Shown here: positions 837 to 15,128 of the stretch, in pieces
Numbering within the stretch: position 1 is the stretch's first letter
Layout: every line of letters begins with the position of its first letter
Assembly (NCBI GenBank): GCA_026016245.1
Contig: CP061211.1
Location: 510,001-542,000, forward strand
Length of the DNA stretch: 32,000 bases
Direction of reading: 5' to 3'
Origin: Candidatus Pacearchaeota archaeon
GTDB taxonomy: Archaea > Nanobdellota > Nanobdellia > Pacearchaeales > UBA284
Translations under genes and position numbers: made by a program
Notes under the pieces: model-generated
The model's input: the letters and a program-made list of their open reading frames with translations, nothing else
The model's database searches: none
What the model was told of the DNA's origin: nothing

Positions 837-886
837 GTTTCTGTTTATGTAAAAATGTTTATAAAGATTATTGTGTTCTTCGGTTT

Positions 887-1795
887 ATGATTTCAAAAGA
901 AGTGACTAGGAGAGCGTTTCTAAAGTATATGATTGCAGGAGGGGCTGCTTTAGCTGCTAAACCTTCATTATTATGGGGTGAGACACTTGAAGATAAAATT
1001 AAAAGAAGAAGAATTGATGCCTTGCATCCTGGTCCAAGAGGACAACATATTGCAGGCTATCGGTTTCCTCTTAAGATTAAAGATAAGATTTTTCCTTATA
1101 TGAAAGGCGAGGAAATAAAATTTAATGTGCGTTTTGAGTATTTTCAGGGCCCAAAAGGTGTTGGAGGAGCTTTAAGGACTTTTGTTTATTTAGATGAAAA
1201 AGATTGGTATTCTAGAAAAGCTATACGCAATCTTAAACTCATATTCTATAGTACAAAGAAAACAAGTGTATCAAAAGAGATATATGAAGTTAATGTGGAT
1301 CGGCATAAAGGAAGAGTAACACACTGTTCTCTTGATTATGTCATACTTCCAGGAGATTATTTTGCTAAAAAATTTGAGAGTAGTGTTTACACAATTTTAA
1401 AAAAAGCGAAAATAAACAAGAAGGATATAAAAAAGGTGTTTTGGGTAAAAGATTTATTTGAAGATATCAAGGATCAGGATTTATTGGAAAAGATTATTGA
1501 AAAAGGTAATGATATAACTGGCCAAAGTGTGCATATAAAAACTGCTGATTATAATGGTTTTGGTCTTCTTGATGATAATCTTCTGAATGGAGAGAAAAGA
1601 AATCCAAAACTAGTGAGGGTTGAGTTGTTGAGAGGCGATCAGAGTGTTGAAGCAGTGGGTATTATTCTTAAGGTTGTTGATTTCAGGGAGACTAAAATGG
1701 GCACAGGAAATTTATTTGGTAGTGCTGATTATTTCTTTGACTTTAATGTGAAAAAACTTAGTAAAGACATAAATATTCCAAAAGGGGAAGATTAA
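887..1795 (+). CDS. Secreted protein of unknown function with a twin-arginine (Tat) signal peptide
   Basis: The internal ATG at 887 gives MISKEVTRRAFLKYMIAGGAALAAKPS. TRRAFLK matches the (S/T)RRxFLK Tat consensus exactly and is followed by a hydrophobic h-region. A TATA-like tttataa lies about 25 nt upstream. The track ORF start at 761 overlaps the divergent gene 528..836 and is rejected. Confidence 0.6.
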   Translation: MISKEVTRRAFLKYMIAGGAALAAKPSLLWGETLEDKIKRRRIDALHPGPRGQHIAGYRFPLKIKDKIFPYMKGEEIKFNVRFEYFQGPKGVGGALRTFVYLDEKDWYSRKAIRNLKLIFYSTKKTSVSKEIYEVNVDRHKGRVTHCSLDYVILPGDYFAKKFESSVYTILKKAKINKKDIKKVFWVKDLFEDIKDQDLLEKIIEKGNDITGQSVHIKTADYNGFGLLDDNLLNGEKRNPKLVRVELLRGDQSVEAVGIILKVVDFRETKMGTGNLFGSADYFFDFNVKKLSKDINIPKGED

Positions 1796-3120
1796 ACAAG
1801 ATCTTTAAGCTCTTCTTTGTAAATGCTCAGAATTTTTGGTTTTAATTTTGATGGAATTCTTGAAGCATAGATTCTAAAGAATTTTTTTCTTAGTTCATCT
1901 TCTCTTGTTAGGGCTTCTTTTAGATATTTTTTCCTGAATTTATCTATAATATATCCTTTTTCTTTATTTCTTAAGGCAAATAAAAGCATTAAAAGTTCTT
2001 GTTCTTTTGAGAAAATTAAGTCATAAATAGTTGGACATTTTGGATTAAATAGGGTATAGTGTTTTCTGTTTTTTTTGCTGAAAAATTTTCTCAGACCCAC
2101 TCTTCTTGGATTTATTCCGAAGGCAGTCATGAATAAAGAGCAACCCATACAAGAACTACAATCATGACACCATCTCTTTCTTGTTGAAGCATCTAAACCA
2201 TAACAAGAATGCTGGTATTTTGCTATGTTTGGATATCTAGAATGAAGGATTTTTGTTATTGCTAAATCTGTTATAGGCCTAATTACACTAAAAACTTTAA
2301 CATCTGCGAATTCTTTTACCATTTTATCTAACTTTTTTGTCCATTCTGTTGTTTGATCATAAGAAGGATAAATTTTCTCTCCATTTTTTCTAATATAGAA
2401 GTCAAAATTCTTTTCATTTCCTAGAATAATATGATGGGAGTTGTAAAAATGAGCTAAAGGTAGAGCAATAAAACCAAATCCAGTTACCATATGAGCATAG
2501 TTGAGGGACATTTCTGCTCTGTTCCATGTCTCAAAATCATTTAATTTCTCAATAGAATTTGTTATGATATGCCCTTTCAGATTATTTTCTTTTGTTAGTT
2601 TCTTCATGAATTTTATCTTTAGTTTATTTTCAGAAGGTGAGACAGTATCATTAATATGTAAGGCTATAGGATTTAAGCTGATTTCTTTGGCTATTGCTAG
2701 ACTAAGAAGACTATCCTTTCCAAATGAAAGAAGGGAAATAGCTTCTGAATCTATTTTTATTGGTTTTTTTGTTTTAATTGGTTTTTTAGAGAAATTTATT
2801 TTTAGAGAGAGAAATTGTTTTTTATATTTTTTAAGATCTTGTTTATATTCGAAAGTAGATGATGGAAGATCCTTTAACATCAATTTCTGGAATGGTCTTT
2901 TGAATTCTGGTTCTGGTGTATTATAGAAGATTTTTTTAAATCTTGCAACTAAAGGTAAAGGGAGAGTTAGAAGATAAGCTAGATTTCTAATTAATTTGTC
3001 TTTTTTATCATATGTTTGCCAAATTTGTTTTGGGTAGCTAAGTTCTGTATTGATTATTTTTTTATGTTTTAATTTTAGAGAAAATCCTTTTTTTGTTAGT
3101 TTGGTTGTTATCTCTGGCAT
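1792..3120 (-). CDS. QueC/ExsB-like PP-loop ATPase (adenine nucleotide alpha-hydrolase superfamily) with long N- and C-terminal extensions
   Basis: A variant PP-loop, LLSFGKDSLLSLAI (nt 2710-2727), is present. A QueC-like zinc motif, SCY-x11-CHDCSSCMGC, lies at nt 2140-2205. The core between them is about 210 aa, the size of QueC. The ATG at 3120 is preferred over the TTG at 3141 used by the track. Confidence 0.45.
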   Translation of the reverse strand: MPEITTKLTKKGFSLKLKHKKIINTELSYPKQIWQTYDKKDKLIRNLAYLLTLPLPLVARFKKIFYNTPEPEFKRPFQKLMLKDLPSSTFEYKQDLKKYKKQFLSLKINFSKKPIKTKKPIKIDSEAISLLSFGKDSLLSLAIAKEISLNPIALHINDTVSPSENKLKIKFMKKLTKENNLKGHIITNSIEKLNDFETWNRAEMSLNYAHMVTGFGFIALPLAHFYNSHHIILGNEKNFDFYIRKNGEKIYPSYDQTTEWTKKLDKMVKEFADVKVFSVIRPITDLAITKILHSRYPNIAKYQHSCYGLDASTRKRWCHDCSSCMGCSLFMTAFGINPRRVGLRKFFSKKNRKHYTLFNPKCPTIYDLIFSKEQELLMLLFALRNKEKGYIIDKFRKKYLKEALTREDELRKKFFRIYASRIPSKLKPKILSIYKEELKDLV

Positions 3121-3210
3121 GTTTAAATCAAGATAGAACAATTTAAAATATTTCTTATCCTATAGTTTTATAAATATTTATGAAATATAAATTGGGCTAA
3201 GGGAAGTAAA

Positions 3211-5844
3211 ATGATTAAAAAAGCTGATTTGAGAAGCAGGGAGAAAATTTTGCAAGCTCTAGACCCAATTGTAAAAGAATGGTTCTTTTCTCAATTCAAG
3301 GAATTTAGCATGCCTCAGCTTTATGGGGTTATGCCAATCTATGAGAGGAAGAATATTCTGATTTCTGCGCCAACTGGTGGAACAAAAACATTAACTGCTT
3401 TTTTATCTATAATTAATTATCTTGTAATTCTTGCTAGGAAAAATGAGTTAGAAGATAAGGTATATTGTGTTTATATCTCACCACTTAAGGCCTTGAGTAA
3501 TGATATTTACATTAATCTTGAGAAGCCTTTAAGTGAGATTAAAGAGTTGGCTAAGAAAAAAGGTGTGAAATTACAGAATATAAAAGTAAGTGTAAGGACA
3601 GGTGATACTGCAGTAGAAGAAAAAGCTAAGATGTTGAAAAAGCCGCCACATATCTTGATTACAACTCCTGAAAGCTTGGCCATAGTTCTTTCAAGTAAAA
3701 AGTTTATTGAAAAATTAAGTGCTGTTGAATATCTGATTATTGATGAAATTCATGCTCTTGCTTGCAACAAAAGAGGTGTTCATTTAAATTTAAGTGTTGA
3801 AAGACTTGAAAATTTGTCTTGTATTGTTCCTGTACGTGTTGGTTTAAGTGCTACGATTGCTCCTATTGAAGAAATTGCAAAATATTTGGTTGGTTATGAA
3901 AAGAAAAATGGGGAATGGAAAGTAAAAGATTGTCTTATTGCCGATGTTCATTTTGTTAAGAAAACTGATTTGAAAGCTTTAAGTCCTATTCCTGATTTAA
4001 TTGATACAACTGCTGAAGAAATGAAAAAGGGTTTGTATTCTTTGCTTGATGATTTAATACAGAAACACAAGACAACCCTAATCTTTACAAATACAAGATC
4101 TGCAACAGAGAGAGTTATAAATCATCTTAAAGAGATGTTTCCAAAAAATTATCAAACTTTGGAAGAAAAAATTGGAGCACATCATTCCTCATTAAGCAAG
4201 GCTTTGAGATTTAAGATTGAACAGCAATTAAGAGAAGGAAAATTAAAGGCTGTTGTTACAAGCACTAGTCTTGAGCTTGGAATAGATATTGGTTATATTG
4301 ACCTTGTTATTTTATTAGGAAGTCCAAAATCAATTGCAAAAGCATTACAGAGAACAGGGAGGGCTGGCCATAGAATGCATAGTATCAGCAAGGGCCGTTT
4401 AGTTGTTTTGGATAGAGATGATCTTGTTGAGTGTGCTGTTATGTTAAAAGATGCTTTGGAAAAGAAGATTGATAGAATACAAATTCCTAAAAACAGTTTG
4501 GATGTTCTCTCTCAACAAATTTATGGGATGGCTATACAAAAGAAGTGGAATGTTGATGAACTTTTTGAGTTGATAAAAAAAAGTTATTGTTATCATGAAT
4601 TAAGCAGGGAAGATTTTCTTTCTGTTTTAAGTTATCTGGCTGGTGAGTATAGTGGATTAGAAACAAAAAATGTTTATGGAAAGATATGGTATGATTTAAA
4701 AACAAAGGAGTTGGGGAAGAGGGGAAGGCTAGCAAGAATGATTTATATGACAAATATTGGCACAATTCCAGAGGAAAGCTATGTTAATGTTATTATTGCA
4801 CATCCTAGAGAAAGAAGAGATGAAAAGATTGGTATGATTGATGAGGCTTTTTTAGAACGCTTAAAAAAAGGAGATGTTTTTGTTCTTGGTGGCTCTAAGT
4901 ATCAGTTTTTATATAGTCGTGGAATGAATGCTTATGTTAATTCCTCTGTTTACAGGCCTCCAACAATTCCTTCTTGGTTTTCAGAGATGCTGCCCCTCAG
5001 TTTTGATCTTGCTTGCTCTATACAACATTTTAGAAAATTAATAGATGATCTGTTTAGGAAAAAGAAGAATGAAAAAGAAATCAAGAATTTTATTAACTCT
5101 TATCTTTATCTTGACAAAAAAGCTGTTAATGCTATTTATAATTATTTTTATGAGCAGTATCATTATGCCAAAATTCCTCATGAAAAAAGGTTTTTGATTG
5201 AAAGATGGAAGGATGAGAATAACAAACAGTATGTAATCTTTCATTCTCTTTACGGCAGAAGGATTAATGATGCTTTGTCTAGGGCTGTGGCTTATCTTGT
5301 GGCTAAACACGGAAGAAGGGATGTTGAGATAGGAATTAGTGATAATGGTTTTTATATTGCAAGCTATCATCCAATGCAAGCTGAAAAAGCTCTCAAGCTT
5401 TTGTCTGAAAAGCCTGAATCTTTGCGTAAAGTTCTTGAAGATGCTGTAGAGAGGACTGAAGTTTTTAAAAGAAGATTCAGACATTGTGCCACAAGAAGTT
5501 TAATGATCTTAAGAAGATATAAAGGCAAGGGTAAAACAGTTGGCAAGCAGCAAATGAAATCTGTTTTCTTGTTAGGCGCTGTAAAAAAAATATCACAAAA
5601 CTTTCCTATTTTAAAAGAAACAAGGCGTGAGATCTTAGAAGATTTGATGGATGTGGAGAATGCCATACAACTTTTGAGTGGAATAAAAAACAAGAAAATT
5701 AATGTAGAAACAATTTATGTTGATCTTCCTAGTCCTTTTTCATTTAACTTGATAACACAAGGACATTTTGATTTGATGAAGATTGAGAACAAAATTGAAT
5801 TTTTGAAGAGGATGCACAAAGCTGTTTTAGAAAGAATAAAATAA
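3211..5844 (+). CDS. lhr: Lhr-type ATP-dependent DEAD/DEAH-box helicase (Lhr-core)
   Basis: 877 aa. Motif I is ISAPTGGTKTLTAF, motif II is IIDEIHALA and motif VI is QRTGRAGHR. A long C-terminal DEAD-associated region typical of Lhr follows. Confidence 0.85.
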   Translation: MIKKADLRSREKILQALDPIVKEWFFSQFKEFSMPQLYGVMPIYERKNILISAPTGGTKTLTAFLSIINYLVILARKNELEDKVYCVYISPLKALSNDIYINLEKPLSEIKELAKKKGVKLQNIKVSVRTGDTAVEEKAKMLKKPPHILITTPESLAIVLSSKKFIEKLSAVEYLIIDEIHALACNKRGVHLNLSVERLENLSCIVPVRVGLSATIAPIEEIAKYLVGYEKKNGEWKVKDCLIADVHFVKKTDLKALSPIPDLIDTTAEEMKKGLYSLLDDLIQKHKTTLIFTNTRSATERVINHLKEMFPKNYQTLEEKIGAHHSSLSKALRFKIEQQLREGKLKAVVTSTSLELGIDIGYIDLVILLGSPKSIAKALQRTGRAGHRMHSISKGRLVVLDRDDLVECAVMLKDALEKKIDRIQIPKNSLDVLSQQIYGMAIQKKWNVDELFELIKKSYCYHELSREDFLSVLSYLAGEYSGLETKNVYGKIWYDLKTKELGKRGRLARMIYMTNIGTIPEESYVNVIIAHPRERRDEKIGMIDEAFLERLKKGDVFVLGGSKYQFLYSRGMNAYVNSSVYRPPTIPSWFSEMLPLSFDLACSIQHFRKLIDDLFRKKKNEKEIKNFINSYLYLDKKAVNAIYNYFYEQYHYAKIPHEKRFLIERWKDENNKQYVIFHSLYGRRINDALSRAVAYLVAKHGRRDVEIGISDNGFYIASYHPMQAEKALKLLSEKPESLRKVLEDAVERTEVFKRRFRHCATRSLMILRRYKGKGKTVGKQQMKSVFLLGAVKKISQNFPILKETRREILEDLMDVENAIQLLSGIKNKKINVETIYVDLPSPFSFNLITQGHFDLMKIENKIEFLKRMHKAVLERIK
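5691..5801 (+). repeat. Direct repeat copy 1 (111 nt, inside the Lhr 3' end)
   Basis: Hand alignment shows it is identical, with 0 mismatches, to 11696-11806. The flanks on both sides are unrelated or diverged. Confidence 0.9.
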
Positions 5845-6750
5845 TTAAATCAAGCTGGCTGCTCCTAACAAGCCAGCATTTTCTTGCAACTTAGAGATAA
5901 CAATTTTAACTCCTTTTTGCGAAACTTTAAAAGATCTTTTTTTCATTTCTTTTATTGCTGGCTTTAAAAGCAAGTTGCCTGCTTTAGAAATGCCACCATT
6001 TATTACAATCATCTCTGGATTGAAAATATTAATAATGTTAGCTAAACCAACACCAAGATATTTTCCAACTTCACTGTAGAGTGCTATGGATTTTTTATTT
6101 CCTTTTTTTGCTTGTTGTTGCAGTTTTATTAATTGATATTGCAGCTTTTGCGGTTCAAGGCTAAATTTAAAACTTTCCTCTTTTGCAACTCTAGCTATTC
6201 CTCTTGCTGAAACAAACTCTTCGAGACAGCCATGATTGCCACAATGACATTTTGGCCCATTTAAATCAATGGCCATATGGCCAAGTTCACCAGCGGTACC
6301 TTGGCCATGATAAATTTTACCATCTATAATAATACCGCTGCCAACTCCTGTTCCGAGACTTAAGCAAATTAAATTCTCGCAATGAAAGAAATGACTTTCA
6401 GCAAGAGCAGCACAATTTGTATCATTTTCTATTCTGGTTTTTAATTTAAACTTTTTTTCAATTATTCTTTTGATAGGAACATTTTTCCAGCCAGGCAAAT
6501 TTGGTGGCTGAAATACAATACCTTTTTCAGAATCAAGAGGGCCCGGCATACCAAGAGCTGTTCCAAGAATGTTTTTTTTATTAAGACCTTCAAGAAGCAA
6601 CGATATAATAGAAAAAATTCTTTTTATAACAAATTTTTTTCCTTTTTTTGCCTTAGTTGAAAATTTTATTTTTTTAATAATTTTATTATTTTGAATTAAA
6701 GCTCCTGCTATTTTAGTTCCACCAACATCTAATGCAATAACATAACTCAT
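5845..6750 (-). CDS. glk: ROK-family glucokinase
   Basis: An N-terminal ATP-binding motif ALDVGGTKIAGAL and the ROK zinc motif CHCGNHGCLEEF are present. The gene is 301 aa. Confidence 0.85.
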   Translation of the reverse strand: MSYVIALDVGGTKIAGALIQNNKIIKKIKFSTKAKKGKKFVIKRIFSIISLLLEGLNKKNILGTALGMPGPLDSEKGIVFQPPNLPGWKNVPIKRIIEKKFKLKTRIENDTNCAALAESHFFHCENLICLSLGTGVGSGIIIDGKIYHGQGTAGELGHMAIDLNGPKCHCGNHGCLEEFVSARGIARVAKEESFKFSLEPQKLQYQLIKLQQQAKKGNKKSIALYSEVGKYLGVGLANIINIFNPEMIVINGGISKAGNLLLKPAIKEMKKRSFKVSQKGVKIVISKLQENAGLLGAASLI

Positions 6751-6751
6751 C

Positions 6752-7228
6752 TTAGAATTTTTTTCTAAAACTTTTTTTTTCTATTTTTTTATAAGAATGG
6801 CCAGCTTTGGCTAGCTGAATTGTTAGTAGCTCTAGCCTTATTTTCCCCAGATTAACTGTTCTATGTGCTTGTTTTTTTGCAGGAAGATAATATGGCTTGT
6901 TTTTTTCTAGTTTAATTACTTCAAAATGTTTTTTATTTTGAATTAAAAGTAGGCCTTTACCTCTTAATAAAACATAAATTTCAGGATAAAGCTTAAGATG
7001 ATAATGGCCCCTAGTCATAAAATGTTCTTTTCCAATTTTGCCTGGCTCAAGAATTGTCAAACTATAATCTGTTCCTTTTTCCTGTTTTCTAAAAACGGTG
7101 TAAATTAATGGATTTTGTTTTAGTTTATTTTTTACTGCTGCCTTATCTGAAAAAAATCTTTGCATGTCACGCAACTTTATAATACTTTTTTTATTATAGT
7201 GCTTTTTAATATATTCTTTAAGTTCCAT
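6752..7228 (-). CDS. pgiA: Cupin-type glucose-6-phosphate isomerase (cPGI)
   Basis: The sequence ILEPGKIGKEHFMTRGHYHLKLYPEIYVLLRGKG, together with AHRTVNLG and AGHSY, matches the metal-binding cupin motifs of Thermococcales cPGI (TxGHxH ... HRxxN). Confidence 0.85.
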   Translation of the reverse strand: MELKEYIKKHYNKKSIIKLRDMQRFFSDKAAVKNKLKQNPLIYTVFRKQEKGTDYSLTILEPGKIGKEHFMTRGHYHLKLYPEIYVLLRGKGLLLIQNKKHFEVIKLEKNKPYYLPAKKQAHRTVNLGKIRLELLTIQLAKAGHSYKKIEKKSFRKKF

Positions 7229-7248
7229 TTTTTAAATTTTATATAATG

Positions 7249-7815
7249 CTATATATTAGCGTGTCTTTTTCTAAGTTCTTTAAAACTTTTATGTTTCTTT
7301 TTTATCATGTCTAGAATAATAGAATCAAGATAAATTAATGCTGATTGCTCAAAAAGCGAAGCAAGGGGTTCTATTTTGCCATTTAATTCTGTTTTAAGTT
7401 CAATAATGAGATCTGCTTCTTTTGCTACTTTTGATTTTGGTTTTGCTGTTATTAAAACAATAGTAGTATTCTGTTTTTTGGCTTCTTTTACTATGTCATA
7501 AGTCAAGGTAGTTTCTCCTGAGCCAGAAATTGCTACAACAAGATCTTTAGAACCAATAGCTGGTGTTATAACTTCGCCAACAACATAGCTTTCAAGACCA
7601 AACTGCCGCAAGCGCATGGCAAATGCCTGAGCAATAAGGCCGCTTCTTCCTGAACCAACTAAAAAAAGATGTCTTTTTTTAAGAAGCAAGGTAACAAATT
7701 CTTTAGTTGTTTTAATATCTATTTTATTGAGGATTTTTGTAATCTCTGTAACAATTTTTTCTGTTTCTTTCGGGGGGGCTGCCCCCTTCGAACCAGGAGA
7801 TTTCTTTTTTTTCAT
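7249..7815 (-). CDS. phi: 6-phospho-3-hexuloisomerase (PHI, SIS domain) with a Lys/Pro/Gly/Ala-rich N-terminal tail
   Basis: SIS motifs LVGSGRSGLIAQAFAMRL and VVAISGSGET are present. The start codon overlaps the hps stop (ATGA). The N-terminus reads MKKKKSPGSKGAAPPKETEK. Confidence 0.8.
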   Translation of the reverse strand: MKKKKSPGSKGAAPPKETEKIVTEITKILNKIDIKTTKEFVTLLLKKRHLFLVGSGRSGLIAQAFAMRLRQFGLESYVVGEVITPAIGSKDLVVAISGSGETTLTYDIVKEAKKQNTTIVLITAKPKSKVAKEADLIIELKTELNGKIEPLASLFEQSALIYLDSIILDMIKKKHKSFKELRKRHANI

Positions 7816-8459
7816 TTTAAAATTTCTTTTATTTTTCTAGCAATAATTTCTGGATTTTTTGCTTTTGTTATAGCTGATCCAACTATAACAATGTCTGGTT
7901 TTTCTTTTAACGCCATAATTTGCCTGGCAATTTTATCATTAATGCTTCCTGCAACAGCAATCTTCACTTTATTCTTTGTTAGTCTTTTGATATCTTTGAT
8001 ACAAGCAAGAAGATTTGTAATGCTTTTATGTAATTTTTCGTCAATTGCTCTGTGCAAGCAGATATATAATGGCCTCTTTTTGAGCTGTTTTAATTTTATG
8101 AGGATTTCTTTTTTGTTCAGGCCAATTGTATCAAGCATTACTTGTTTGTTTTTTTTAGCTGAATTTATAGCAGAAAGGATAGTTTCTTTGGGTGCAGAAA
8201 GACAAACTGTTGTAATATCTGCTCCTGCATCAAAGGCAAGCTTTGCTTCAAGAGCTCCAACATCCATTGTCTTCATATCAGCGAGAATCTTTTTTTTGGG
8301 AAATCTTTTTTTGAATGTTTTAACAATATGTAAGGATTCTTCTTTAATTAAAGGGGTTCCAGCTTCAATGATGTCAATAAACTTGGCTGTTTGATTGGCT
8401 ATTTTAATTGCTTTTTTTTTGTTTGGCATATCTAATGCAAGCTGTAACTGGATTTTCAT
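7812..8459 (-). CDS. hps: 3-hexulose-6-phosphate synthase (HPS, OMP-decarboxylase fold)
   Basis: The N-terminus MKIQLQLALDMP...IDIIEAGTPLIKEE is typical of HPS/HxlA. The gene is 215 aa and overlaps both rpiB and phi by 4 nt. Confidence 0.85.
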   Translation of the reverse strand: MKIQLQLALDMPNKKKAIKIANQTAKFIDIIEAGTPLIKEESLHIVKTFKKRFPKKKILADMKTMDVGALEAKLAFDAGADITTVCLSAPKETILSAINSAKKNKQVMLDTIGLNKKEILIKLKQLKKRPLYICLHRAIDEKLHKSITNLLACIKDIKRLTKNKVKIAVAGSINDKIARQIMALKEKPDIVIVGSAITKAKNPEIIARKIKEILK

Positions 8460-8932
8460 TTTGAATATCTTTTTTCAATTGCTTTAATTTTATTTATTCT
8501 TCTAATATGTCTTTTTTCTTTAGATAAAAAAAGCGTTTCTAACCACGCCACAACTAATTGTTTGGCAAGTTGTAAGGAGATATCCCCAAGACATAAGACA
8601 TTTGAATTTAAATGTTCTGATGCATGAACTGCAGTTTCTTTATTCCAACAAAGTGCTGCCCTGATTCCAGGAAATTTATTTGCTGCTATAGACATGCCCT
8701 GGCCAGTTCCGCAGATTAAAATTCCCTTACTTTCAGTCTTTGCTTTTAAAACTGCTCTGCAAACTTTTAGAGCATAATCAGGATAATCATCTGTTTTGTT
8801 ATATTTATAGGATCCAATATCCTCAGCCAAATAACCTTGGCTGGCTAGAAATTTTTTAATTTCTTGTTTCAGGGCAAAACCGGTGTGATCGCTTCCAATA
8901 AAAATCTTGGTTTTCTCACTTCTTTTTTTCAT
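8456..8932 (-). CDS. rpiB: Ribose-5-phosphate isomerase B (RpiB/LacAB family)
   Basis: The motifs IFIGSDHTGFALK and GILICGTGQGMSIAANKFPGIRAA (catalytic Cys motif) are present. The gene is 158 aa. Confidence 0.9.
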   Translation of the reverse strand: MKKRSEKTKIFIGSDHTGFALKQEIKKFLASQGYLAEDIGSYKYNKTDDYPDYALKVCRAVLKAKTESKGILICGTGQGMSIAANKFPGIRAALCWNKETAVHASEHLNSNVLCLGDISLQLAKQLVVAWLETLFLSKEKRHIRRINKIKAIEKRYSK

Positions 8933-8939
8933 TTTAATT

Positions 8940-9809
8940 TTATTTTAATTTCTTAATAGCAGCTGCAACAGCGTCTGAAAGGTCTATTTTTGACGCTGCT
9001 GAAGGAATGCTGTTTGTACTGACAACAATTCCAATTTTTTTTAATTTATTTAAAGCATTTTTAGCAAAAATTCCATGGATTCCAATAAAACAAACCTGCT
9101 TTGCAAGTTTTTTCGCTTCTTTTGCTGCCTCCAGCATTGTGCCGCCTGTTGAAATGATATCATCAATTATTATTGCTGTTTTTACTTTTTTCTTCTCTGC
9201 CTTAATGTTTGAAATTTTAACTTTTTCTGGAGTTAATCTTTTCTTTTTTAGAATTATAGATTTTGTTTTTAGAATATCTGCAATTGGCTCGACCCATTGC
9301 GCACTTTCCTGGTCAGGACCAATCAAAACGAAATCCTTAAAATTCTTTTTAATATAAGCAGATATTTCTTTAGTTGTACTTATTTTTTCTGTATTTGGAA
9401 AAAAAGCCCTTAATCTCTTAAATCTGTGAAGATGTGGCTCAACAATGAAAACCTTATCAAAAATTTTATGAAACTTGGCAATGATCTTTGCACTGATACT
9501 TTCATGCTTTTCAAATCTTTTATCTTCTCTTAAATAAGGGAAATATAAAGCCATAAGAATTAATTTTTTTGATTTTAATTCTTTGGCAGTATGGGCTACC
9601 AATAACATTTCTGTTAATTTGTCGTTTACAGCTGGAAAATAAGATTGTATAAAAATTATTGTTTTTCCCTTGACAGAACTTTTGAATCTGACCTTTAATT
9701 CACCATCTGGAAATTTTTCAACTATTAAATCTGAATAACTTAGCTTGGATTTTTTTGCGACTGCTTTTGCCAGGTTCTTAGCACCTGAACAGCCAATAAT
9801 CACCCCCAT
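8940..9809 (-). CDS. prs: Ribose-phosphate pyrophosphokinase (PRPP synthetase)
   Basis: The PRPP-binding loop AIIIDDIISTGGTM is present. The gene is 289 aa, with the archaeal Prs length and layout. Confidence 0.85.
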   Translation of the reverse strand: MGVIIGCSGAKNLAKAVAKKSKLSYSDLIVEKFPDGELKVRFKSSVKGKTIIFIQSYFPAVNDKLTEMLLVAHTAKELKSKKLILMALYFPYLREDKRFEKHESISAKIIAKFHKIFDKVFIVEPHLHRFKRLRAFFPNTEKISTTKEISAYIKKNFKDFVLIGPDQESAQWVEPIADILKTKSIILKKKRLTPEKVKISNIKAEKKKVKTAIIIDDIISTGGTMLEAAKEAKKLAKQVCFIGIHGIFAKNALNKLKKIGIVVSTNSIPSAASKIDLSDAVAAAIKKLK

Positions 9810-9821
9810 TTTTTTATTTTA

Positions 9822-11045
9822 TTATTTTGCTTTTTTCTCTTTTTCAAAAACCTGATTTAAGAGGTTTATCCAATTTAATAAATGTGTTGTAATTAAAAAT
9901 TTATTTTTTACAGTTTCCCTGCCTTGTTTTCCCAGTGTTGCCCTTAATTTTGAATCTTTTAACAGTTTGACTATTCTGGCTGCAAAGCCGTCAAAATCAT
10001 AGGGGCTCAATAAGTAGCCATTCTTTCCGTTAATAATTTGTTCTGTAATGCCACCAACGTTTGATGCCACAACTGGTGTGCCTTTCCAAAGGGCTTCACT
10101 TACAGTTAAACCAAAACCTTCCATAATGGATTTTTGAATAATAACTGAGGCTTTTCTTTGTAATGCATTAACAAGTATATCATTAACAACATTCAAAATA
10201 ATAATGTCTTCCTGGCCACTTACTTTTTTTATTATCTTTTCATAAATTTGCTGACCCATCGGATCATCAAGGGCCATGCACCCTATCAACACAAGTCTAC
10301 AGTCTACTTTTTCCCTGACTTTTTTGAAAATCTTAATCATGCCAAAATGGTCCTTCCATTTGTCAAACCTGCTCACTTGGCAGACAAGGGGTTTATCTGT
10401 CGGAACTCCAAATTTATTAAGATAATGATTGACTGTTCTCTCAGTCAATTCTTTATTTTTTATATCTAAGGGATCAATAGAGGGCTGCATAATTACTTGT
10501 TTTGGTTTTAGGCCTGGCTGTAAAAATTTTTTTGATAAGAATACTGAATAATCATAATGATTGATGAAATTCTTTTTAAGATAATTAAAGACTTCTTTAT
10601 TTGGGTGGCTTGCATCAGAATGACATCGCCAGATCCATGGCTGCCTTTTTTTATAAAATTTGACCAGGGGAAGTGGCTGTATATCATGGATAATAACTGC
10701 ATCATGATGTATGTGTGTGAAAGAACTAAATCTCTCGCAGTTTTCAAGATAAATTTTTTGCTTTTGCTTTGTAAAATGTATTTTTTCACCCTGTATGGCA
10801 TTATAAAATTTTTTTGTTGTTATAAAAAAATCTGGCGGGCCATGCAAAATGCGCCAGCCAACATCTATTCCCAAATTATTCATTAAAGGAATTAAAGAAT
10901 TAAGAATTACAGCAACACCACCCCCCTGATAAGTTGAGTTAATATTCAGAATATGTTTATCACCAAGCTTTTCAGCCCTTTCATGAATCTGACCAAGCTT
11001 TTCAGCTCCAACAAATTTCTTATATTTCTTTAGATTTTCCACCAT
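9822..11045 (-). CDS. treT: GT4 glycosyltransferase, TreT-like trehalose glycosyltransferring synthase
   Basis: The motifs INSTYQGGGVAVILNSL, QPWIWRCHSDASHPN, VSRFDKWKD and EGFGLTVSEALWKG match my recollection of Thermococcales TreT almost motif for motif. The gene is 407 aa. Confidence 0.75.
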   Translation of the reverse strand: MVENLKKYKKFVGAEKLGQIHERAEKLGDKHILNINSTYQGGGVAVILNSLIPLMNNLGIDVGWRILHGPPDFFITTKKFYNAIQGEKIHFTKQKQKIYLENCERFSSFTHIHHDAVIIHDIQPLPLVKFYKKRQPWIWRCHSDASHPNKEVFNYLKKNFINHYDYSVFLSKKFLQPGLKPKQVIMQPSIDPLDIKNKELTERTVNHYLNKFGVPTDKPLVCQVSRFDKWKDHFGMIKIFKKVREKVDCRLVLIGCMALDDPMGQQIYEKIIKKVSGQEDIIILNVVNDILVNALQRKASVIIQKSIMEGFGLTVSEALWKGTPVVASNVGGITEQIINGKNGYLLSPYDFDGFAARIVKLLKDSKLRATLGKQGRETVKNKFLITTHLLNWINLLNQVFEKEKKAK

Positions 11046-11111
11046 TGGACCCCTTTTTATTTATTCAGCTAACAAATTATTTAAAACTTTCTAGCCCCTG
11101 TTTATTAGAAA

Positions 11112-11138
11112 ATGGAGATCTTACCTGGAATTGAAATT
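11112..11138 (+). pseudogene. Stranded 5' fragment A of a metallophosphoesterase gene (9 codons, MEILPGIEI)
   Basis: The sequence atggagatcttacctggaattgaaatt encodes the same 9 residues as the intact gene start at 12341. There are 4 differences and all are synonymous. Homology ends where the 3' end of the minus-strand gene 11137..11520 begins. Confidence 0.45.
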
Positions 11139-11520
11139 ATTCCTTTCTTGATTTTGCTCCTTCAGAAAGAATTTTCCAAAATTCATTAGTTACAACAATA
11201 TCAAAATCATTGGAGTTATTATAAGAAAGATAATAATATAATTTAGGGTTATAGTAATGTCCCTCTTTACCATAAAGTGACAAATCAAGACCTACAAATT
11301 TACTATAGCAATTATGGGTCCTCCATCCACACGTAGGACAGATACCCTGTACAGCATAATTCTTGGTTTCACTAGTACCTACCCCATCACCACATAATTT
11401 ATGGGTACAATCAAGAATACGCAATTCTATTATTTTTTTATTAATTTGTTTTTTACATTTTACACATATTCCAGATACTAAAGAGGATAGTGTTCTTAGA
11501 GCTTCTTCGTGACCACCCAT
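11137..11520 (-). CDS. Cys-rich hypothetical protein (putative zinc ribbon)
   Basis: 127 aa, with the Cys motifs CVKC ... CTHKLC ... CPTC ... HNC and a Tyr/Asn-rich C-terminal half. I recognise no family. Confidence 0.45.
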   Translation of the reverse strand: MGGHEEALRTLSSLVSGICVKCKKQINKKIIELRILDCTHKLCGDGVGTSETKNYAVQGICPTCGWRTHNCYSKFVGLDLSLYGKEGHYYNPKLYYYLSYNNSNDFDIVVTNEFWKILSEGAKSRKE

Positions 11521-11563
11521 ATTAGAATAAAACCTTTAAACCTGATATTATTTATTGTGATTA

Positions 11564-11707
11564 ATGGAACTTTTACCTGGAATAAAGATCATAAATAAAG
11601 CCCTGTGGCTTTCAAAGCATAAAATTCTGATCATTGCAGATCTTCATCTTGGTTATGAAGAAGCCCTGAACCAGCAGGGAATTAAATGTTTTACTCAAGA
11701 AAATTAA
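11564..11707 (+). pseudogene. Stranded 5' fragment B of a diverged metallophosphoesterase gene (about 40 homologous codons, then a premature stop)
   Basis: MELLPGIKIINKALWLSKHKILIIADLHLGYEEALNQQGI aligns with MEILPGIEIKGKSLWLPKRKILIIADLHIGYEEALVGEGF of the intact gene at 12341. The frame then runs into the Lhr-derived repeat out of frame and stops at the TAA at 11705-11707. Confidence 0.6.
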
Positions 11708-11806
11708 TGTAGAAACAATTTATGTTGATCTTCCTAGTCCTTTTTCATTTAACTTGATAACACAAGGACATTTTGATTTGATGAAGATTGAGAACAAAAT
11801 TGAATT
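11696..11806 (+). repeat. Direct repeat copy 2 (111 nt)
   Basis: Identical to 5691-5801, with an offset of 6005 nt in the same orientation. Confidence 0.9.
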
Positions 11807-11852
11807 CCTGAAAAGAATGCATGAAAAAGTTCTGAGGAAAATTAAAAAATAG
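11697..11852 (+). pseudogene. Stranded 3' fragment of an Lhr helicase gene (last 51 codons plus stop)
   Basis: It encodes KKINVETIYVDLPSPFSFNLITQGHFDLMKIENKIEFLKRMHEKVLRKIKK*, compared with the intact Lhr C-terminus ...KIEFLKRMHKAVLERIK*. The first 111 nt of homology (from 11696) are identical to 5691-5801. No upstream helicase body is present. Confidence 0.85.
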
Positions 11853-12282
11853 GTTGATAGGTTGGTTTTTTGAAGATTTGTCTATGTTTGTTTATATAAA
11901 GTCTAGCATATTCCCCTATTCTTTTTTTGAATTTATGATTAAAAATAGGTAATAAATCAAACAAGGATTTGTAGTCTTCTATATCATAACATATTGTCTT
12001 TTCATTTGGTATTTTAAATTCTCTTCTTAGTTTGTAATATATTTCTGGGGCAGCTATAATAATCTGATTACTTTCATTAATCATCTTTTGTGTTAAGCGC
12101 GTCATAAACATATATGCTAAAAATTTTGGTGGGTTAAAATAAGGGCTCTTTTCTTTATTTCTGTAACCTGCTTTAACAACTCTTGCCTTTATTTTTTGTT
12201 TTTTAAAACCTATAGAGATTTCTCTTGCGAGATTTCCACTTCTCCAGTGTCCAGCTTCGCAAATAATAAGTAAGGTTTTCAT
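11842..12282 (-). CDS. Low-molecular-weight phosphatase-like protein (CX5R(S/T) P-loop)
   Basis: The N-terminal MKTLLIICEAGHWRSGNLA contains C-x5-R-S at the position where LMW-PTP/ArsC-type enzymes carry their P-loop. The rest of the protein is not recognisably conserved by eye. Confidence 0.4.
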   Translation of the reverse strand: MKTLLIICEAGHWRSGNLAREISIGFKKQKIKARVVKAGYRNKEKSPYFNPPKFLAYMFMTRLTQKMINESNQIIIAAPEIYYKLRREFKIPNEKTICYDIEDYKSLFDLLPIFNHKFKKRIGEYARLYINKHRQIFKKPTYQPIF

Positions 12283-12340
12283 AATAAATTAGGAAATGGA
12301 ATATATTTAAATTTAATTGGATTATAAAATAGGAAATAAA

Positions 12341-13048
12341 ATGGAAATTTTGCCTGGAATTGAAATCAAAGGCAAGTCTTTATGGTTGCCAAAAAGAAAA
12401 ATTTTGATTATAGCAGATTTACATATAGGCTATGAAGAAGCTTTGGTTGGGGAAGGTTTTCTTGCACCAAGAACAATGTTTAAAGAGATGAAGAAAGAAC
12501 TACAAGAATTATTAAAATTAAAGCCAAAAATTATTATTATTGATGGCGATTTAAAACATGAGTTTGGTTTGATATCAAGACAAGAATGGCATGAAACATC
12601 AGCTATTTTAGATCTATTGTTGAAAAAATGTAAGGTCATTCTAATTAAAGGAAATCATGATACAATTTTAGAACCAATTGCAAAGAAAAAAGAGCTTTCT
12701 GTTAAAAATTTTTATTGTTTTAATGATGTTTGTGTTTTACATGGGCATAAAATTTTGCTTGATGAAAAGGTTCATGATTCTAAAACTTTGATTATTGCTC
12801 ATGAACATCCTGCTGTAAGTATTAAGGAAGATGTAAAACAAGAAATTTACAAATGTTTCTTGCTTGGGAAGTGGAAAAATAAAAAGTTGGTAGTTATGCC
12901 TTCTTTTTTTACAATTTTTGAAGGAAGTGATGTTAAAAAGGAAAAACTTTTGAGTCCTTTTTTGAATGAGAGAAAAATTAAAAATTTTAAGGTTTTTGTT
13001 TTAGGAGATAAAGTTTATAGATTTGGAAAATTGAAAAATATAAAATAA
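12341..13048 (+). CDS. Metallophosphoesterase (calcineurin-like, of the MPE type often linked to Lhr)
   Basis: The phosphoesterase motifs IIADLHIGYEE, IIDGDLKHEF, KGNHD, LHGH and AHEHP are present. The ATG at 12341 is preceded by aggaaataaa. The track start at 12317 is a TTG. Confidence 0.75.
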   Translation: MEILPGIEIKGKSLWLPKRKILIIADLHIGYEEALVGEGFLAPRTMFKEMKKELQELLKLKPKIIIIDGDLKHEFGLISRQEWHETSAILDLLLKKCKVILIKGNHDTILEPIAKKKELSVKNFYCFNDVCVLHGHKILLDEKVHDSKTLIIAHEHPAVSIKEDVKQEIYKCFLLGKWKNKKLVVMPSFFTIFEGSDVKKEKLLSPFLNERKIKNFKVFVLGDKVYRFGKLKNIK

Positions 13049-13072
13049 ATAAAATAAAATAAAAAAGAAAAA

Positions 13073-13792
13073 TTATTTTATCCCAATAACAGCAATATTA
13101 TCATAATAAATGCTTCCATCAGGATCTGTTGCTAAACCTATTGCCCCACTTGTTAATTTAGTAACAGGTTCGAATTCAAAAGCTGTTTGGTCATCAATAT
13201 CTAATTTTCCTTCTTTGACATTGAGTTTTAAAGAGTGCCATTCATCATTATCTATTATTTTATTGTAATCTACCCTCTTTTTTATCTGTGTTCTAGAGCC
13301 ATCACTAACTCTGTAAAGTGTATATTCGACACCTGTTGGTTCTATCTCTGAAGAAATAATATAATAATCTTTGTTATCTCCTGAAACATAGAATGCTATT
13401 TCTGGTCCTATTCCTTTACCTGCTGTATTTATTCTGAAATCCAAGCTTATTGTATAATCTTTCCAAGACTGGCTTCCTGTTGTTAGAATCCTTCCTTTTA
13501 TATTAACCACATTTCCATACTTGCCGCTATCTTGAGCTGTTCCTTCTATAGATGCTTGAAGTTTATCTTCCATAACTGAAGTCCATTTATCTGGTGATGA
13601 ACCTTTGTTGTCATCTGAAAAATCATCTGAAAAAAGCATCTCTATTTGTGGTTGTTGTTGCTGTCCATTGCTTGGGGGTGTTTGTCCGTTTGTTTGGGTT
13701 TCTTCTTCACATCCCGCACCTATCACAAACATGGCTGTTATGAGAATTGTTGCTATCAGTAAAACACTAAAGATTCGTTTTCCCTTAACCAT
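13073..13792 (-). CDS. Probable lipoprotein with a ConA-like/LamG (DUF1080-like) domain
   Basis: A signal peptide with lipobox-like VIGAGC is followed by a Gln/Pro-rich linker. The pattern WKDYTISLDFRI ... WHSLKLNVKEGKL ... GAIGLATDPDGSIYYDNIAV is typical of ConA-like beta-sandwich domains. Confidence 0.5.
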   Translation of the reverse strand: MVKGKRIFSVLLIATILITAMFVIGAGCEEETQTNGQTPPSNGQQQQPQIEMLFSDDFSDDNKGSSPDKWTSVMEDKLQASIEGTAQDSGKYGNVVNIKGRILTTGSQSWKDYTISLDFRINTAGKGIGPEIAFYVSGDNKDYYIISSEIEPTGVEYTLYRVSDGSRTQIKKRVDYNKIIDNDEWHSLKLNVKEGKLDIDDQTAFEFEPVTKLTSGAIGLATDPDGSIYYDNIAVIGIK

Positions 13793-13842
13793 AAAATCTT
13801 TGAGGAGAAGAAATTTAAATAACTTTCCTTTCTGTTTGTTGT

Positions 13843-13925
13843 GCTAGGATACCAGAAAGGTAATGGGCCCGGCTCGAACCCGGGTTGGCTTTTAGCCTAT
13901 GGAGGTTCGAATCCTCCTCCTAGCG
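13843..13925 (+). tRNA. tRNA-Ser (anticodon CGA), class II with a long variable arm and no encoded CCA
   Basis: Hand-folded cloverleaf. The acceptor stem is GCTAGGA/TCCTAGC. The D stem is CCA(G)/(A)TGG with GG in the loop. The anticodon stem is CCCGG/CCGGG with loop CTCGAAC. The variable arm is GGCT-TTT-AGCC. The T arm is GGAGG-TTCGAAT-CCTCC and the discriminator is G. Confidence 0.85.
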
Positions 13926-14219: not shown

Positions 14220-14221
14220 CT

Positions 14222-14671: not shown

Positions 14672-14738
14672 CTTTAAAATTGGAAATTTGTACTTTTAAA
14701 TTTTTGCTTGAAAAAGAAAGGAAAAGCATGCCTTAGCT

Positions 14739-15093: not shown

Positions 15094-15128
15094 TATTAAA
15101 AAGATTTAAAAAAGGATTTGTTTTTCGG

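Follow-up and report, generated by a model that had tools for sequence, protein, structure and literature searches.

The Lhr-MPE slot and its cargo

The locus was found in a metagenome-assembled genome of an uncultivated Pacearchaeota (DPANN) archaeon, on a deposited contig of 710,724 bp, from which a stretch of 32,000 nucleotides was analyzed (the window). An intact Lhr-core helicase gene was followed by a block of about 5.9 kb carrying a sugar-to-PRPP operon, a second, partial Lhr 3' end, a convergent gene (g146), and an intact Lhr-associated metallophosphoesterase (MPE) gene (Table 1). The pairing of Lhr and MPE in a two-gene cluster is known from bacteria and from archaea, DPANN among them (PMC7826289, PMC8301817), and among 16 relatives the two genes were next to each other, or nearly so, in 12; the intact MPE therefore places the insert in a conserved repair-gene slot. 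The closest sampled relative, L001, had the empty site, with Lhr converging directly on a 146-aa gene followed by MPE, in the order QueC-like gene, Lhr, g146, MPE, g239 and, further on, cdc6, DP1 and DP2. The slot of a second relative, L002, had the same content, with a 143-aa g146 homologue. The insertion proposed in the initial annotation was therefore borne out by synteny, as both flanks were collinear in L001 without the block. The g146 product had no Pfam or PDB match, but its CX5R-S motif resembles that of low-molecular-weight phosphatases.

Table 1. Features of the locus in window coordinates, with strand and supporting details
Feature	Coordinates	Strand	Details
Intact Lhr-core helicase	3211..5844	+	877 aa; Pfam DEAD, Helicase_C, WH_Lhr, DEAD_assoc; NCBIfam PRK13767, 1202 bits
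Repeat copy 1	5691..5801	+	Native-type Lhr codons about 827-864; 0/111 mismatches to copy 2
Tail 1, foreign Lhr 3' end used by the intact gene (…FLKRMHKAVLERIK, stop)	5802..5844	+	Left edge of the foreign block
glk, ROK-family glucokinase, last operon gene	5845..6750	-	Pfam ROK, 1.4e-67; TIGR00744
pgiA, cupin-type glucose-6-phosphate isomerase	6752..7228	-	Pfam GPI PF06560, 4e-19
phi, 6-phospho-3-hexuloisomerase	7249..7815	-	TIGR03127 RuMP_HxlB, 1.8e-51, exceeds cutoff
hps, 3-hexulose-6-phosphate synthase	7812..8459	-	TIGR03128 RuMP_HxlA, 1.7e-55; Pfam OMPdecase/HUMPS exceeds cutoff
rpiB, ribose-5-phosphate isomerase B	8456..8932	-	TIGR01120, 2.2e-44, exceeds cutoff
prs, ribose-phosphate diphosphokinase (PRPP synthase)	8940..9809	-	TIGR01251, 1.2e-59, exceeds cutoff
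treT, trehalose glycosyltransferring synthase, first operon gene	9822..11045	-	Pfam TreT_GT1, GT1
Bidirectional promoter region, then MPE' relic	11046..11138	+	Relic at 11112-11138, MEILPGIEI
Cys-rich orphan ORF, IB618_03140	11137..11520	-	127 aa; between two MPE 5' relics
MPE'' fragment, codons 1-40 of a diverged MPE allele	11564..11683	+	Own upstream region 11521-11563
Junction zone, 12 nt (AAATGTTTTACT)	11684..11695		Illegitimate joint ends at 11695/11696
Repeat copy 2	11696..11806	+	Start of the displaced native Lhr 3' remnant
Tail 2, displaced native Lhr end (…FLKRMHEKVLRKIKK, stop)	11807..11852	+	Overlaps g146 by 11 nt
g146, native slot gene outside the insert	11842..12282	-	79% identical to the L001 orthologue, same position
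Intact native MPE	12341..13048	+	TIGR00024 SbcD_rel_arch, 3.6e-46, exceeds cutoff; PdeM-like match

All cargo assignments made earlier were confirmed by Pfam and NCBIfam, with the hps match to TIGR03128 scoring 187.9 bits, slightly under the curated cutoff of 200. No recombinase gene was encoded in the block or the window, in keeping with the absence of integrases and transposases noted previously; the locus is a clean gene-transfer scar that lacks a mobile-element gene, and not a new kind of system. The composition of the block was only marginally atypical, with a tetranucleotide r of 0.960 versus 0.962-0.989 and an RSCU distance that reached the upper limit of the range without exceeding it. 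Outside the source genome, the nearest relatives of the treT product were Pace- and Nanoarchaeota proteins (66-73% identical), and the same operon occurred in other members of these groups in different contexts (L022-L024). In L025 a treT operon was directly divergent from MPE. A donor genome was not found: the best TreT relative was 73% identical, the orphan ORF was without a homologue, and a search with the MPE fragment returned only itself.

The 111-nt repeat and the two Lhr tails

The perfect direct repeat described in the initial annotation was recovered exactly, with both copies in the same orientation and offset by 6,005 nt. Its identity began abruptly on the left, where flanks were unrelated (A at 5690, T at 11695), and ended as abruptly on the right, where 17 of the following 44 positions differed. 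The second-longest exact repeat in the window was 19 nt, and the longest produced by chance in 30 first-order Markov simulations was 18 nt; the 111-nt repeat is far beyond chance.

Both core copies were native in type, with an identity of 0.83 to L001 versus 0.68 to L003, and so were the 111 nt upstream of the core (0.77 versus 0.64). The tails beyond the core were 60% identical to each other at the nucleotide level. Tail 2, ending in EKVLRKIKK, had an identity of 0.77 to the L001 tail (EKILKKIKK) and matched it in stop position and in convergent neighbor. Tail 1, ending in KAVLERIK, had an identity of 0.77 to L003 (KAVLARIK, same stop position) versus 0.58 to L001. Affinity switched exactly at 5801/5802: the Lhr body, both cores, and tail 2 were L001-like and tail 1 alone was L003-like, the call for the tails being made on 43-47 nt of sequence. 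Across its length the intact Lhr was 85% identical in amino acids to that of L001, with no internal mosaic step. Judged by these affinities, the intact gene is a chimera, native up to 5801 and foreign in its last 14 codons, and the repeat is duplicated native sequence from one genome, not a donor copy set against a recipient copy.

The five differences reported earlier (ttt/ttc, ttg/ctg, aag/aaa, agg/aga, cac/cat) fall within the six codons that follow the core, which encode F L K R M H; all are synonymous, and both tails thus evolved as parts of functional genes. The view that the downstream copy is the orphaned 3' end of another Lhr allele also held, and comparison with relatives identifies tail 2 as the displaced native end and tail 1 as the foreign one. 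As had been noted, the downstream stop (11850-11852) lies within the 3' end of convergent g146, and that of the intact Lhr (5842-5844) touches the glk stop (5845-5847).

Metallophosphoesterase fragments and the right-hand joint

The right end of the block was formed by the 5' fragment of an MPE gene, MPE'', as proposed in the initial annotation. From its ATG at 11564, its 40 codons were 62-75% identical in amino acids to N-terminal MPE segments from nine relatives and 47.5% identical to that of L003; in nucleotides, it was 67% identical to the intact MPE in the window, which was itself 76% identical to the L001 MPE and forms the right-hand partner of the slot. MPE'' lay within an annotated 47-aa ORF ending at 11707 (hypothetical protein IB618_03145), in a frame different from that of the Lhr remnant. 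The 12 nt between them may be filler, or they may belong to MPE'' (…QMF) with 13 nt deleted; in the MPE consensus, G-I is followed by xxPRxMF. No microhomology can therefore be named at the joint. The junction 13-mer had no other copy in the window.

A third MPE start, MPE', was located beside treT, and the foreign block is therefore itself composite. This relic comprised 9 codons from the start of an older MPE allele and differed from the intact MPE at 3 nt, all synonymous; its back-translated pattern matched only at the relic and at the intact MPE start, with 0 matches in 100 shuffles. The intergenic region containing it aligned with the treT-MPE intergenic region of L025. With the block ending in an Lhr tail on one side and an MPE 5' end on the other, and with the arrangement in L025, the donor order of Lhr, operon, and MPE suggested earlier is a sound inference. 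The orphan ORF retrieved itself alone among 5.8e9 clustered proteins, and itself with one weak match among 1.84e9 representatives; it had no Pfam match and an AF2 pLDDT of 42. Additional to the initial annotation were the intact MPE, the Lhr-MPE pairing, the affinity switch, and the MPE' relic.

Proposed course of insertion and alternative explanations

We estimate at roughly 0.6 the probability that this archaeon gained the operon from a related, clearly diverged lineage by recent recombinational insertion, probably through one in-register Lhr/Lhr junction and one illegitimate MPE/Lhr junction. The structure, the sorting of its parts into native and foreign, the vacant site in relatives, and the non-homologous character of the right joint are established by the data, whereas integration into the chromosome, the succession of molecular events, and the form in which the donor DNA arrived are given here as we infer them. 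The ancestral order would have been Lhr, convergent g146, and MPE, a conserved repair-gene pair with one small gene between. The donor, a related but diverged lineage, would have carried treT-prs-rpiB-hps-phi-pgiA-glk in the same slot, where an older event would already have rearranged the MPE 5' end, leaving the 9-codon relic by treT, then the orphan ORF, and beyond it another MPE start. Junction 1 would have been guided by homology, in register within Lhr at 5801/5802, with the donor's last 14 codons used thereafter. Junction 2, at 11695/11696, is illegitimate and would have joined donor MPE codon about 40-44 to the recipient's own Lhr. Its entry point in Lhr precedes junction 1 by 111 nt, so that this length of native Lhr would be doubled, and the displaced native 3' end (core and tail 2) would survive before g146. 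The resulting topology is that of a Campbell "pop-in", and the intermediate may have been a circle whose core was of native type, an ends-in event involving two copies of the chromosome, or a replicative template switch to donor DNA and back.

The initial annotation had proposed Campbell-type integration of a circle from a divergent relative, closed at 11695/11696. The single-crossover topology agrees with our data, but a donor circle bearing its own Lhr core is very unlikely (P<1e-5). Such a circle would leave reciprocal donor/recipient hybrid copies, differing wherever donor and recipient differ, and the cores had no differences in 111 positions. With donor-recipient identity near 60% for the tail and at 67% for the MPE 5' end, 111 identical bases shared by the two are very unlikely (P about 1e-5 even assuming 90% identity). 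The right-hand joint is either that of donor MPE with the recipient's own Lhr or the closure of a circle from a conspecific strain, the latter only if that strain already had the 5801/5802 breakpoint.

A conspecific origin of this kind, the only form in which the initial model is viable, is possible though doubtful. A strain whose slot had earlier been replaced by the foreign allele through ordinary double homologous exchange, leaving the left breakpoint at 5801/5802, would have supplied a circle that began at Lhr 5691, took in the operon, and ended near MPE codon 44; illegitimately closed, this circle would have recombined by a single crossover within the core. This predicts the same final structure, accounts for a perfect core followed by abrupt divergence, and suits a core and block of exactly 6,005 nt. 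However, it requires more steps (earlier replacement, circularization, transfer, integration), homologous integration would have only 111 nt to work with, a short target, and no clean-replacement strain was found, the organism's exact proteins occurring in one read set only. An independent Logan assembly (k=31) of run DRR463595 bears on this, its graph being compatible with a circle, and on a further, unlikely explanation, in which the block is unintegrated. Three Logan contigs matched the window without mismatches (5772-7955, 7935-11725, and 11777-22282+) and broke exactly 30 nt (k-1) into the repeat; the MPE/Lhr joint and both repeat exits are therefore present in the raw reads. The k=31 graph, in which a single repeat node is entered by two paths and left by two, and whose contigs break at the repeat as would be expected, suits the integrated form and an empty chromosomal site (Lhr, core, tail 2, g146) plus a 6,005-bp circle or tandem molecule (core, tail 1, operon, MPE'') alike, and an assembler could have threaded both together. 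Yet the deposited contig crosses the repeat twice, which normally needs reads, pairs, or k-mers longer than 111 nt backing the path from Lhr body through core to tail 1, and the 6-kb unit carries no replication gene. The joint and the rearrangement would be real regardless, with location alone differing.

Slightly less probable still is an old structure with secondary identity, in which a diverged Lhr 3' remnant from an ancient rearrangement was homogenized, from its left end up to 11806, by recent gene conversion from the intact Lhr. The left end of identity is also the end of homology, where a conversion tract must stop, and the block has an older scar (MPE') and possibly a 13-nt deletion in MPE''. 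Against this, a native tail 1 should resemble L001, yet the tail that resembles it, and shares its convergent neighbor, is tail 2; the structure was absent from L001 and L002, frames were still open in both pseudogene pieces, and one more event is needed than for insertion from a diverged donor. Deletions from an MPE 5' end to the next Lhr 3' end, in a tandem of two or three full Lhr-slot-MPE units of different lineages, would naturally give MPE/Lhr joints, as both genes lie on the same strand, and three MPE starts are stacked serially. Such an origin is highly improbable, as it leaves the perfect 111 nt and the chimeric Lhr unexplained and requires a prior, unexplained assembly of whole units, and no relative had tandem units or extra fragments. 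We give the least credence to a chimera of assembly or amplification that joined the slot alleles of two co-occurring strains through an artefactual read path from MPE'' to Lhr. The genome is metagenome-assembled and typical reads exceed the repeat in length, but an independent assembler recovered the joint from repeatedly seen k-mers, and MPE'' and Lhr share no k-mer able to cause a graph misjoin. Logan contig L029 ran through the right joint without a branch, so this read set held no competing, intact continuation of MPE''.

If the block was integrated through the two junctions that we favor, Lhr remains intact despite the insert, and the genome gains a self-promoted route from glucose and trehalose to PRPP (the reverse ribulose-monophosphate pathway). 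As the initial annotation had pointed out, the 111-nt repeats would permit scarless loss of the block.

The repeated Lhr core and the extent of the foreign DNA

The perfect 111-nt repeat proposed in the initial annotation was real: its two copies (the core), one within the intact Lhr helicase gene and one in a displaced Lhr remnant, were identical, in direct orientation and offset by 6005 nt (coordinates are collected in the table). Directly 3' of the core the two copies, held in the same register, differed at 17 of 44 positions, and the five differences previously noted in the first six post-core codons (F L K R M H) were indeed each synonymous, the frames ending …KAVLERIK and …EKVLRKIKK before the stop. 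Once one core copy was dropped, the longest exact repeat in the window was 19 nt, and in 30 first-order Markov simulations the longest repeat never exceeded 18 nt. Nucleotide identity to the closest related locus (L001) and to a more distant relative (L003) was 0.77 vs 0.64 for the 111 nt upstream of the core, 0.83 vs 0.68 for the core itself, and 0.58 vs 0.77 for the end of the intact gene (tail 1; KAVLARIK before the stop in L003). Affinity flipped from L001-like to L003-like at 5801/5802, in frame, so that intact Lhr is a chimera whose body and core are native and whose tail is foreign. When identity to L001 and L002 was scanned along Lhr, no mosaic boundary appeared in the body, both relatives being too diverged at third positions. 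Tail 2, the end of the remnant, had 0.77 nucleotide identity to the L001 tail (EKVLRKIKK vs EKILKKIKK, each before the stop) and shared its stop position and convergent neighbour. The remnant, an orphan 3' fragment made of a core piece and tail 2 and lying downstream of the new tail and cargo, is native throughout.

The two tails were about 60% identical at the nucleotide level, and a fragment (MPE'') of the gene for an Lhr-associated metallophosphoesterase (MPE), left of the second core, was 67% identical to the intact MPE gene over the first 120 nt. For a donor core matched against a recipient core, the probability of 111 straight matches would be 8e-6 if the two were 90% identical and 2e-11 if they were 80% identical. 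Given this low donor/recipient identity in tail and MPE beside 111 identical nucleotides, the foreign DNA begins at 5802 and ends no later than 11695; the repeat is native Lhr sequence that was duplicated, and 11695/11696 joins donor MPE to native-type Lhr.

Features of the Lhr-MPE locus and its surroundings (window positions)
Feature	Position	Strand	Remarks
Two genes left of Lhr	761-3141		344-aa ORF and QueC-like 449-aa protein
Intact Lhr-core helicase gene	3211-5844	+	NCBIfam PRK13767, 1202 bits
Core, copy 1	5691-5801		in intact Lhr
Tail 1	5802-5844		foreign Lhr end
Inserted block	5802-11695		maximum extent of foreign DNA
Operon for TreT, Prs, RpiB, HPS, PHI, cupin-type PGI, ROK glucokinase	5845-11045	-	gaps -4 to 20 nt
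MPE' relic	11112-11138		9 codons
Candidate decayed Lhr 3' tail	11145-11189		14 codons
MPE'' fragment	11564-11683		40 codons
Sequence between MPE'' and repeat	11684-11695		12 nt
Lhr remnant	11696-11852		core piece and tail 2
Core, copy 2	11696-11806		in remnant
Tail 2	11807-11852		native, displaced Lhr end
g146	11842-12282	-	slot gene
Intact MPE gene	12341-13048	+	TIGR00024
tRNA-Ser(CGA)	13842-13926
Putative replication origin	14997-15373		upstream of cdc6
OB-fold gene, class-I aaRS, M16 peptidase	22933-26949

The Lhr-MPE slot and its cargo

Lhr-Core and MPE are known as a two-gene DNA-repair cluster, reportedly described by Ejaz and Shuman in 2018. Such clusters occur in bacteria and archaea, including DPANN (PMC7826289, PMC8301817). 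The initial annotation had overlooked the intact MPE gene to the right of the insert, which matched TIGR00024 above cutoff and is PdeM-like, of the Lhr-associated type. The genes framing the event are therefore that pair, a PRK13767 helicase and a TIGR00024/PdeM-like phosphoesterase, but inserted genes separate its two members in this lineage, and the cluster is the landing site and not the mechanism. Among 16 related loci retrieved using Lhr as the query, MPE lay 3' of Lhr in 12; together with the intact MPE right of the insert, this conserved pairing places the event in the slot between Lhr and MPE. The slot was empty in L003, L005 and L006 (Lhr-MPE spacing 1-22 nt), held a g146-type gene in L001 and L002 and a 174-aa ORF in L004, and in L007 contained a gene for a 337-aa Prs-like protein of the PRPP synthase family (6135-7148, co-oriented with Lhr and MPE); in L025 a treT-gapdh operon adjoined MPE. 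These loci show that a conserved Lhr-MPE pair frames a variable slot in Pacearchaeota.

The synteny comparison called for by the initial annotation yielded the empty site in L001 (Lhr 85% identical), which was collinear on both sides and lacked 5802-11695. Its order was QueC-like, Lhr, g146 homologue, MPE, g239, g158, g149, g85, Cdc6, DP1 and DP2, the g146 homologue being convergent on Lhr and overlapping the Lhr stop. In L002 (82%), Lhr likewise converged on a 143-aa g146 homologue in the g146 position, followed by MPE; here the homologue overlapped the Lhr 3' end by 53 nt. The window and L001 were about 80% identical at the nucleotide level vs 100% for the repeat copies, indicating that the event took place long after the split from L001. 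None of the 16 related Lhr loci contained extra Lhr or MPE fragments, or the block. The products of g146 and of its L002 homologue (3322-3753) carried an N-terminal C-X5-R-S (ICEAGHWRS and FCDSNVVRS), a motif typical of low-molecular-weight phosphatase or ArsC P-loops; both proteins had zero matches in Pfam, NCBIfam and PDB.

The eight ORFs of the block comprised seven metabolic enzymes and one 127-aa orphan. Judged by annotated gene identities, the earlier label of a sugar-to-PRPP operon is reasonable: we take the cargo to be the reverse ribulose-monophosphate pathway, which leads from hexose to ribose-5-phosphate, with an extension to PRPP and with TreT as a possible entry for trehalose. The claim that integrases and transposases are lacking was borne out by a scan for recombinase families, which had zero matches in all 8 block ORFs and all other window ORFs. 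GC3, codon usage and tetranucleotides of the block gave at most a marginal signal. Homologues of the seven-function operon were found in L022-L024 in other contexts, with rpiA replacing rpiB and hps-phi fused.

Junctions, origin of the block and assembly support

The MPE 5' fragment described left of the second core was also recovered, as an ATG at 11564 and 40 codons in a frame other than that of the Lhr remnant. Against the N-terminal MPE sequences of nine relatives, these codons showed 62-75% identity (47.5% for L003); they represent a second allele of the gene that is intact 650 nt further on. The joint at 11695/11696 is non-homologous, lies between unrelated genes and closes a 6,005-nt unit. 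Twelve nucleotides (AAATGTTTTACT) separate codon 40 from the repeat; it is plausible, though unproven, that the first eight of them (11684-11691, AAATGTTT) are the conserved MPE QMF codons after a 13-nt deletion. Copying of this filler from elsewhere in the window was rejected, a second copy being absent. GGAAT was common to MPE'' (11678-11682) and Lhr (5680-5684). Searches for a donor found none: TreT had a best match of <=33% identity in JGI metagenome contigs and a best non-self match of 73% among 5.8e9 proteins; the 40-aa MPE fragment matched itself and one weak hit only, and no viral contig matched the junction sequence.

An older scar lies inside the foreign block. The sequence ATGGAGATCTTACCTGGAATTGAAATT (MEILPGIEI), oriented divergently from treT and separated by 66 nt from its start, shared 9/9 residues with the start of intact MPE and differed from it at three nucleotides, all synonymous. 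Its back-translated pattern occurred at two window sites only, this relic (MPE') and intact MPE, and in 0/100 shuffles. The region preceding it (11046-11111) aligned with the sequence between treT and MPE in L025. This locus holds the TreT most similar to that of the window (73%), and in it treT is directly divergent from MPE and beside a g239 homologue. The relic and the L025-like intergenic region together indicate that the operon stood directly beside an MPE gene in the donor lineage. That gene was later cut after codon 9-10 by a 425-nt piece carrying a Cys-rich orphan and the promoter and start of another MPE allele; the allele start in this piece was 74% identical to MPE' over 27 nt. Three MPE starts thus stand in series: one of 9 codons, one of 40 and that of the intact gene. 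The MPE 5' end has served as a breakpoint at least twice, and the foreign block is itself a composite from an older rearrangement. Homologues of the Cys-rich orphan amounted to one weak match among 1.84e9 representatives, and its structure prediction was uninformative (pLDDT 42). Directly after MPE' and antisense to the end of this orphan, 14 codons (FLILLLQKEFSKIH before a stop), equal in length to tail 1, form a candidate decayed Lhr 3' tail. Its nucleotide identity to 15 Lhr tails, 0.45, exceeded the null value of 0.29 (p about 0.002), but a protein HMM built from such tails did not pick it up, and the assignment is unconfirmed.

Logan contigs of run DRR463595 (k=31) covered 5772-7955, 7935-11725, and 11777-22282 and beyond, all three with 0 mismatches to the window. 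They ended exactly k-1 = 30 nt inside the repeat, as expected for a 31-mer graph, and their coverage places the MPE''-Lhr joint and the exits from the core into tail 1 and into tail 2 in the reads. This independent reproduction of the joint and both exits led us to reject an assembly artefact or simple chimera. One of these contigs (L029) crossed the joint without a competing branch, so an intact MPE'' is absent from DRR463595. Exact look-ups of Lhr, the 406-aa TreT and the QueC-like protein returned zero matches, and the fourth graph edge, from Lhr body to core, was therefore not seen directly. An empty site accompanied by a separate 6,005-bp circle would give the same 31-mer graph as the integrated form, and the graph does not distinguish the two; against such a circle, the deposited 710-kb contig passes through the repeat twice, which usually requires spanning evidence. 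We put integration of the block in the chromosome at roughly 85-90%. The Logan contigs also broke inside hps (7935-7955, a 21-nt overlap whose 21-mer is unique in the window), for which a local drop in coverage or strain variation could be responsible.

Comparison with known systems and genomic setting

The initial annotation read the layout as Campbell-type integration of a circularised segment, and the topology fits: direct repeats of the target flank the insert, the target gene is intact on one side with a truncated copy on the other, and repeat plus insert form a closed 6,005-nt unit with one closure joint, the repeats permitting scarless pop-out. Unlike the Campbell case, this was a natural event without vector or replicon, its closure joint connects two chromosomal genes (MPE 5' to Lhr 3'), the repeat is just 111 nt and recipient-type, and the circular intermediate is putative. 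For Campbell integration an uninterrupted site is expected in relatives, and one is present in L001 and L002; the two repeat copies should also be reciprocal donor/recipient hybrids wherever donor and recipient differ. Here both copies are identical and native-type, which fits only a circle with a native-type core, and the part of the proposal in which the circle brought its own donor core is very unlikely. We prefer a joint made directly to the recipient's own Lhr. A circle from a conspecific strain in which the 5801/5802 breakpoint was already present would rescue the annotated model and is less preferred; topologically, both direct joining and the conspecific circle are Campbell-type 'pop-in' events, comparable to insertion-duplication and to the intermediate used in archaeal and bacterial pop-in/pop-out genetics. 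A simple tandem duplication was rejected because only 111 nt are common to the two units, one of which has the operon and the other g146, with tails 60% and MPE 5' ends 67% identical. Tandem duplication followed by allelic replacement with the right crossover in MPE was likewise rejected, MPE'' being unlike native MPE right up to the joint.

Homology-facilitated illegitimate recombination (HFIR) was reportedly described by de Vries and Wackernagel and by Prudhomme et al., both in 2002. PMC3240628 describes HFIR as producing one homologous and one illegitimate joint; in the classical form the recipient DNA between them is replaced or deleted. The illegitimate joint of HFIR is expected at a few bases of microhomology; here it connects unrelated genes, with the 12 nt described above at the joint. 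The locus resembles it in having one end in register (Lhr/Lhr) and the other joined illegitimately, and an insert without a recombinase gene, but the illegitimate joint falls upstream of its homologous counterpart, so that 111 nt were duplicated and nothing was lost. Classical HFIR, demonstrated in transformable bacteria and not known from archaea, is excluded by this duplication in place of a deletion. Integrase-mediated islands that enter the 3' end of a gene and supply its replacement, flanked by att direct repeats, share the order of gene body, repeat, element tail, cargo, repeat and displaced native tail, but neither block nor window has an integrase, and the right end is a neighbour-gene fragment and not an element end. 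Membership of that class was rejected for lack of a recombinase and because the block is at this site in none of 16 relatives, the operon occurring elsewhere in other contexts. PMC5361080, discussing Jackson et al. 2009, describes C-terminal displacement at rhs, CDI and T6SS loci: the old end is shifted downstream by an incoming 3' end with its cargo. Here too a conserved gene gained a new 3' end and cargo, the old end and a core piece were orphaned downstream, the shared core can recombine later, and successive relics stack, with three MPE starts. Lhr, in contrast, is no polymorphic toxin but a helicase that acts in DNA repair; the exchanged tips are homologous Lhr ends of 14-15 codons that bring no new function, and the cargo is metabolic and not an immunity gene. 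The locus reveals no new system type; it is a new, unusually legible case of a known kind of event, whose scars are rarely resolved in this group.

DPANN archaea combine very small genomes with a patchy metabolism, and gene transfer probably shapes their capabilities; to our knowledge, its molecular route can almost never be traced. At this locus a 5.9-kb acquisition has kept its two junctions at base resolution, one homologous and one illegitimate, with no mobile-element gene. By annotation, the acquired genes make up a complete route from glucose/trehalose to PRPP; the native gene end is still present, and the 111-nt repeat could reverse the event. If reads confirm integration, and perhaps excision, the locus would be a natural test case for recombination-only gene acquisition in uncultivated archaea. 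A bolder and improbable reading is that the Lhr 3' end and MPE 5' end form a recurrent, integrase-free docking pair for exchanging and stacking slot modules in Pacearchaeota. Every transfer would deliver an Lhr tail, cargo and an MPE start, pushing the earlier occupant downstream to give the 9 codons of MPE', the 40 codons of MPE'', and then the Lhr remnant and intact MPE; the 6-kb unit would pop out through the 111-nt repeats as a circle and serve as transfer intermediate. If true, this would mean cassette exchange by host recombination only, near a replication origin.

Cdc6, the two PolD subunits and further archaeal markers are encoded in the window, whose GC content is about 31%. Right-hand genes were 76-90% identical to L001; the two genes left of Lhr were far more diverged (344-aa ORF 42%, QueC-like protein 51%), with synteny retained. 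The tRNA-Ser(CGA) gene, some 2 kb to the right of the remnant, had no visible role in the rearrangement; it is flanked by g239 and by a 158-aa ORF, the predicted 3' end of which extends a few bases into it. An intergenic region of 21% GC upstream of cdc6, only some 3 kb away from the Lhr remnant, is a likely replication origin; it contains three ORB-like TTTCCATAGGAAA elements, of which two are direct and one is inverted. In L022, a more distant Pacearchaeote, treT-prs-rpiA-hps/phi-pgiA-glk (8248-19034) adjoins an OB-fold gene, a class-I aaRS (72% identical) and an M16 peptidase, a block that here lies about 11 kb downstream of the slot. L026 and L027 carry treT operons <=3 kb from PolD DP2, and sugar operons recur near the origin.
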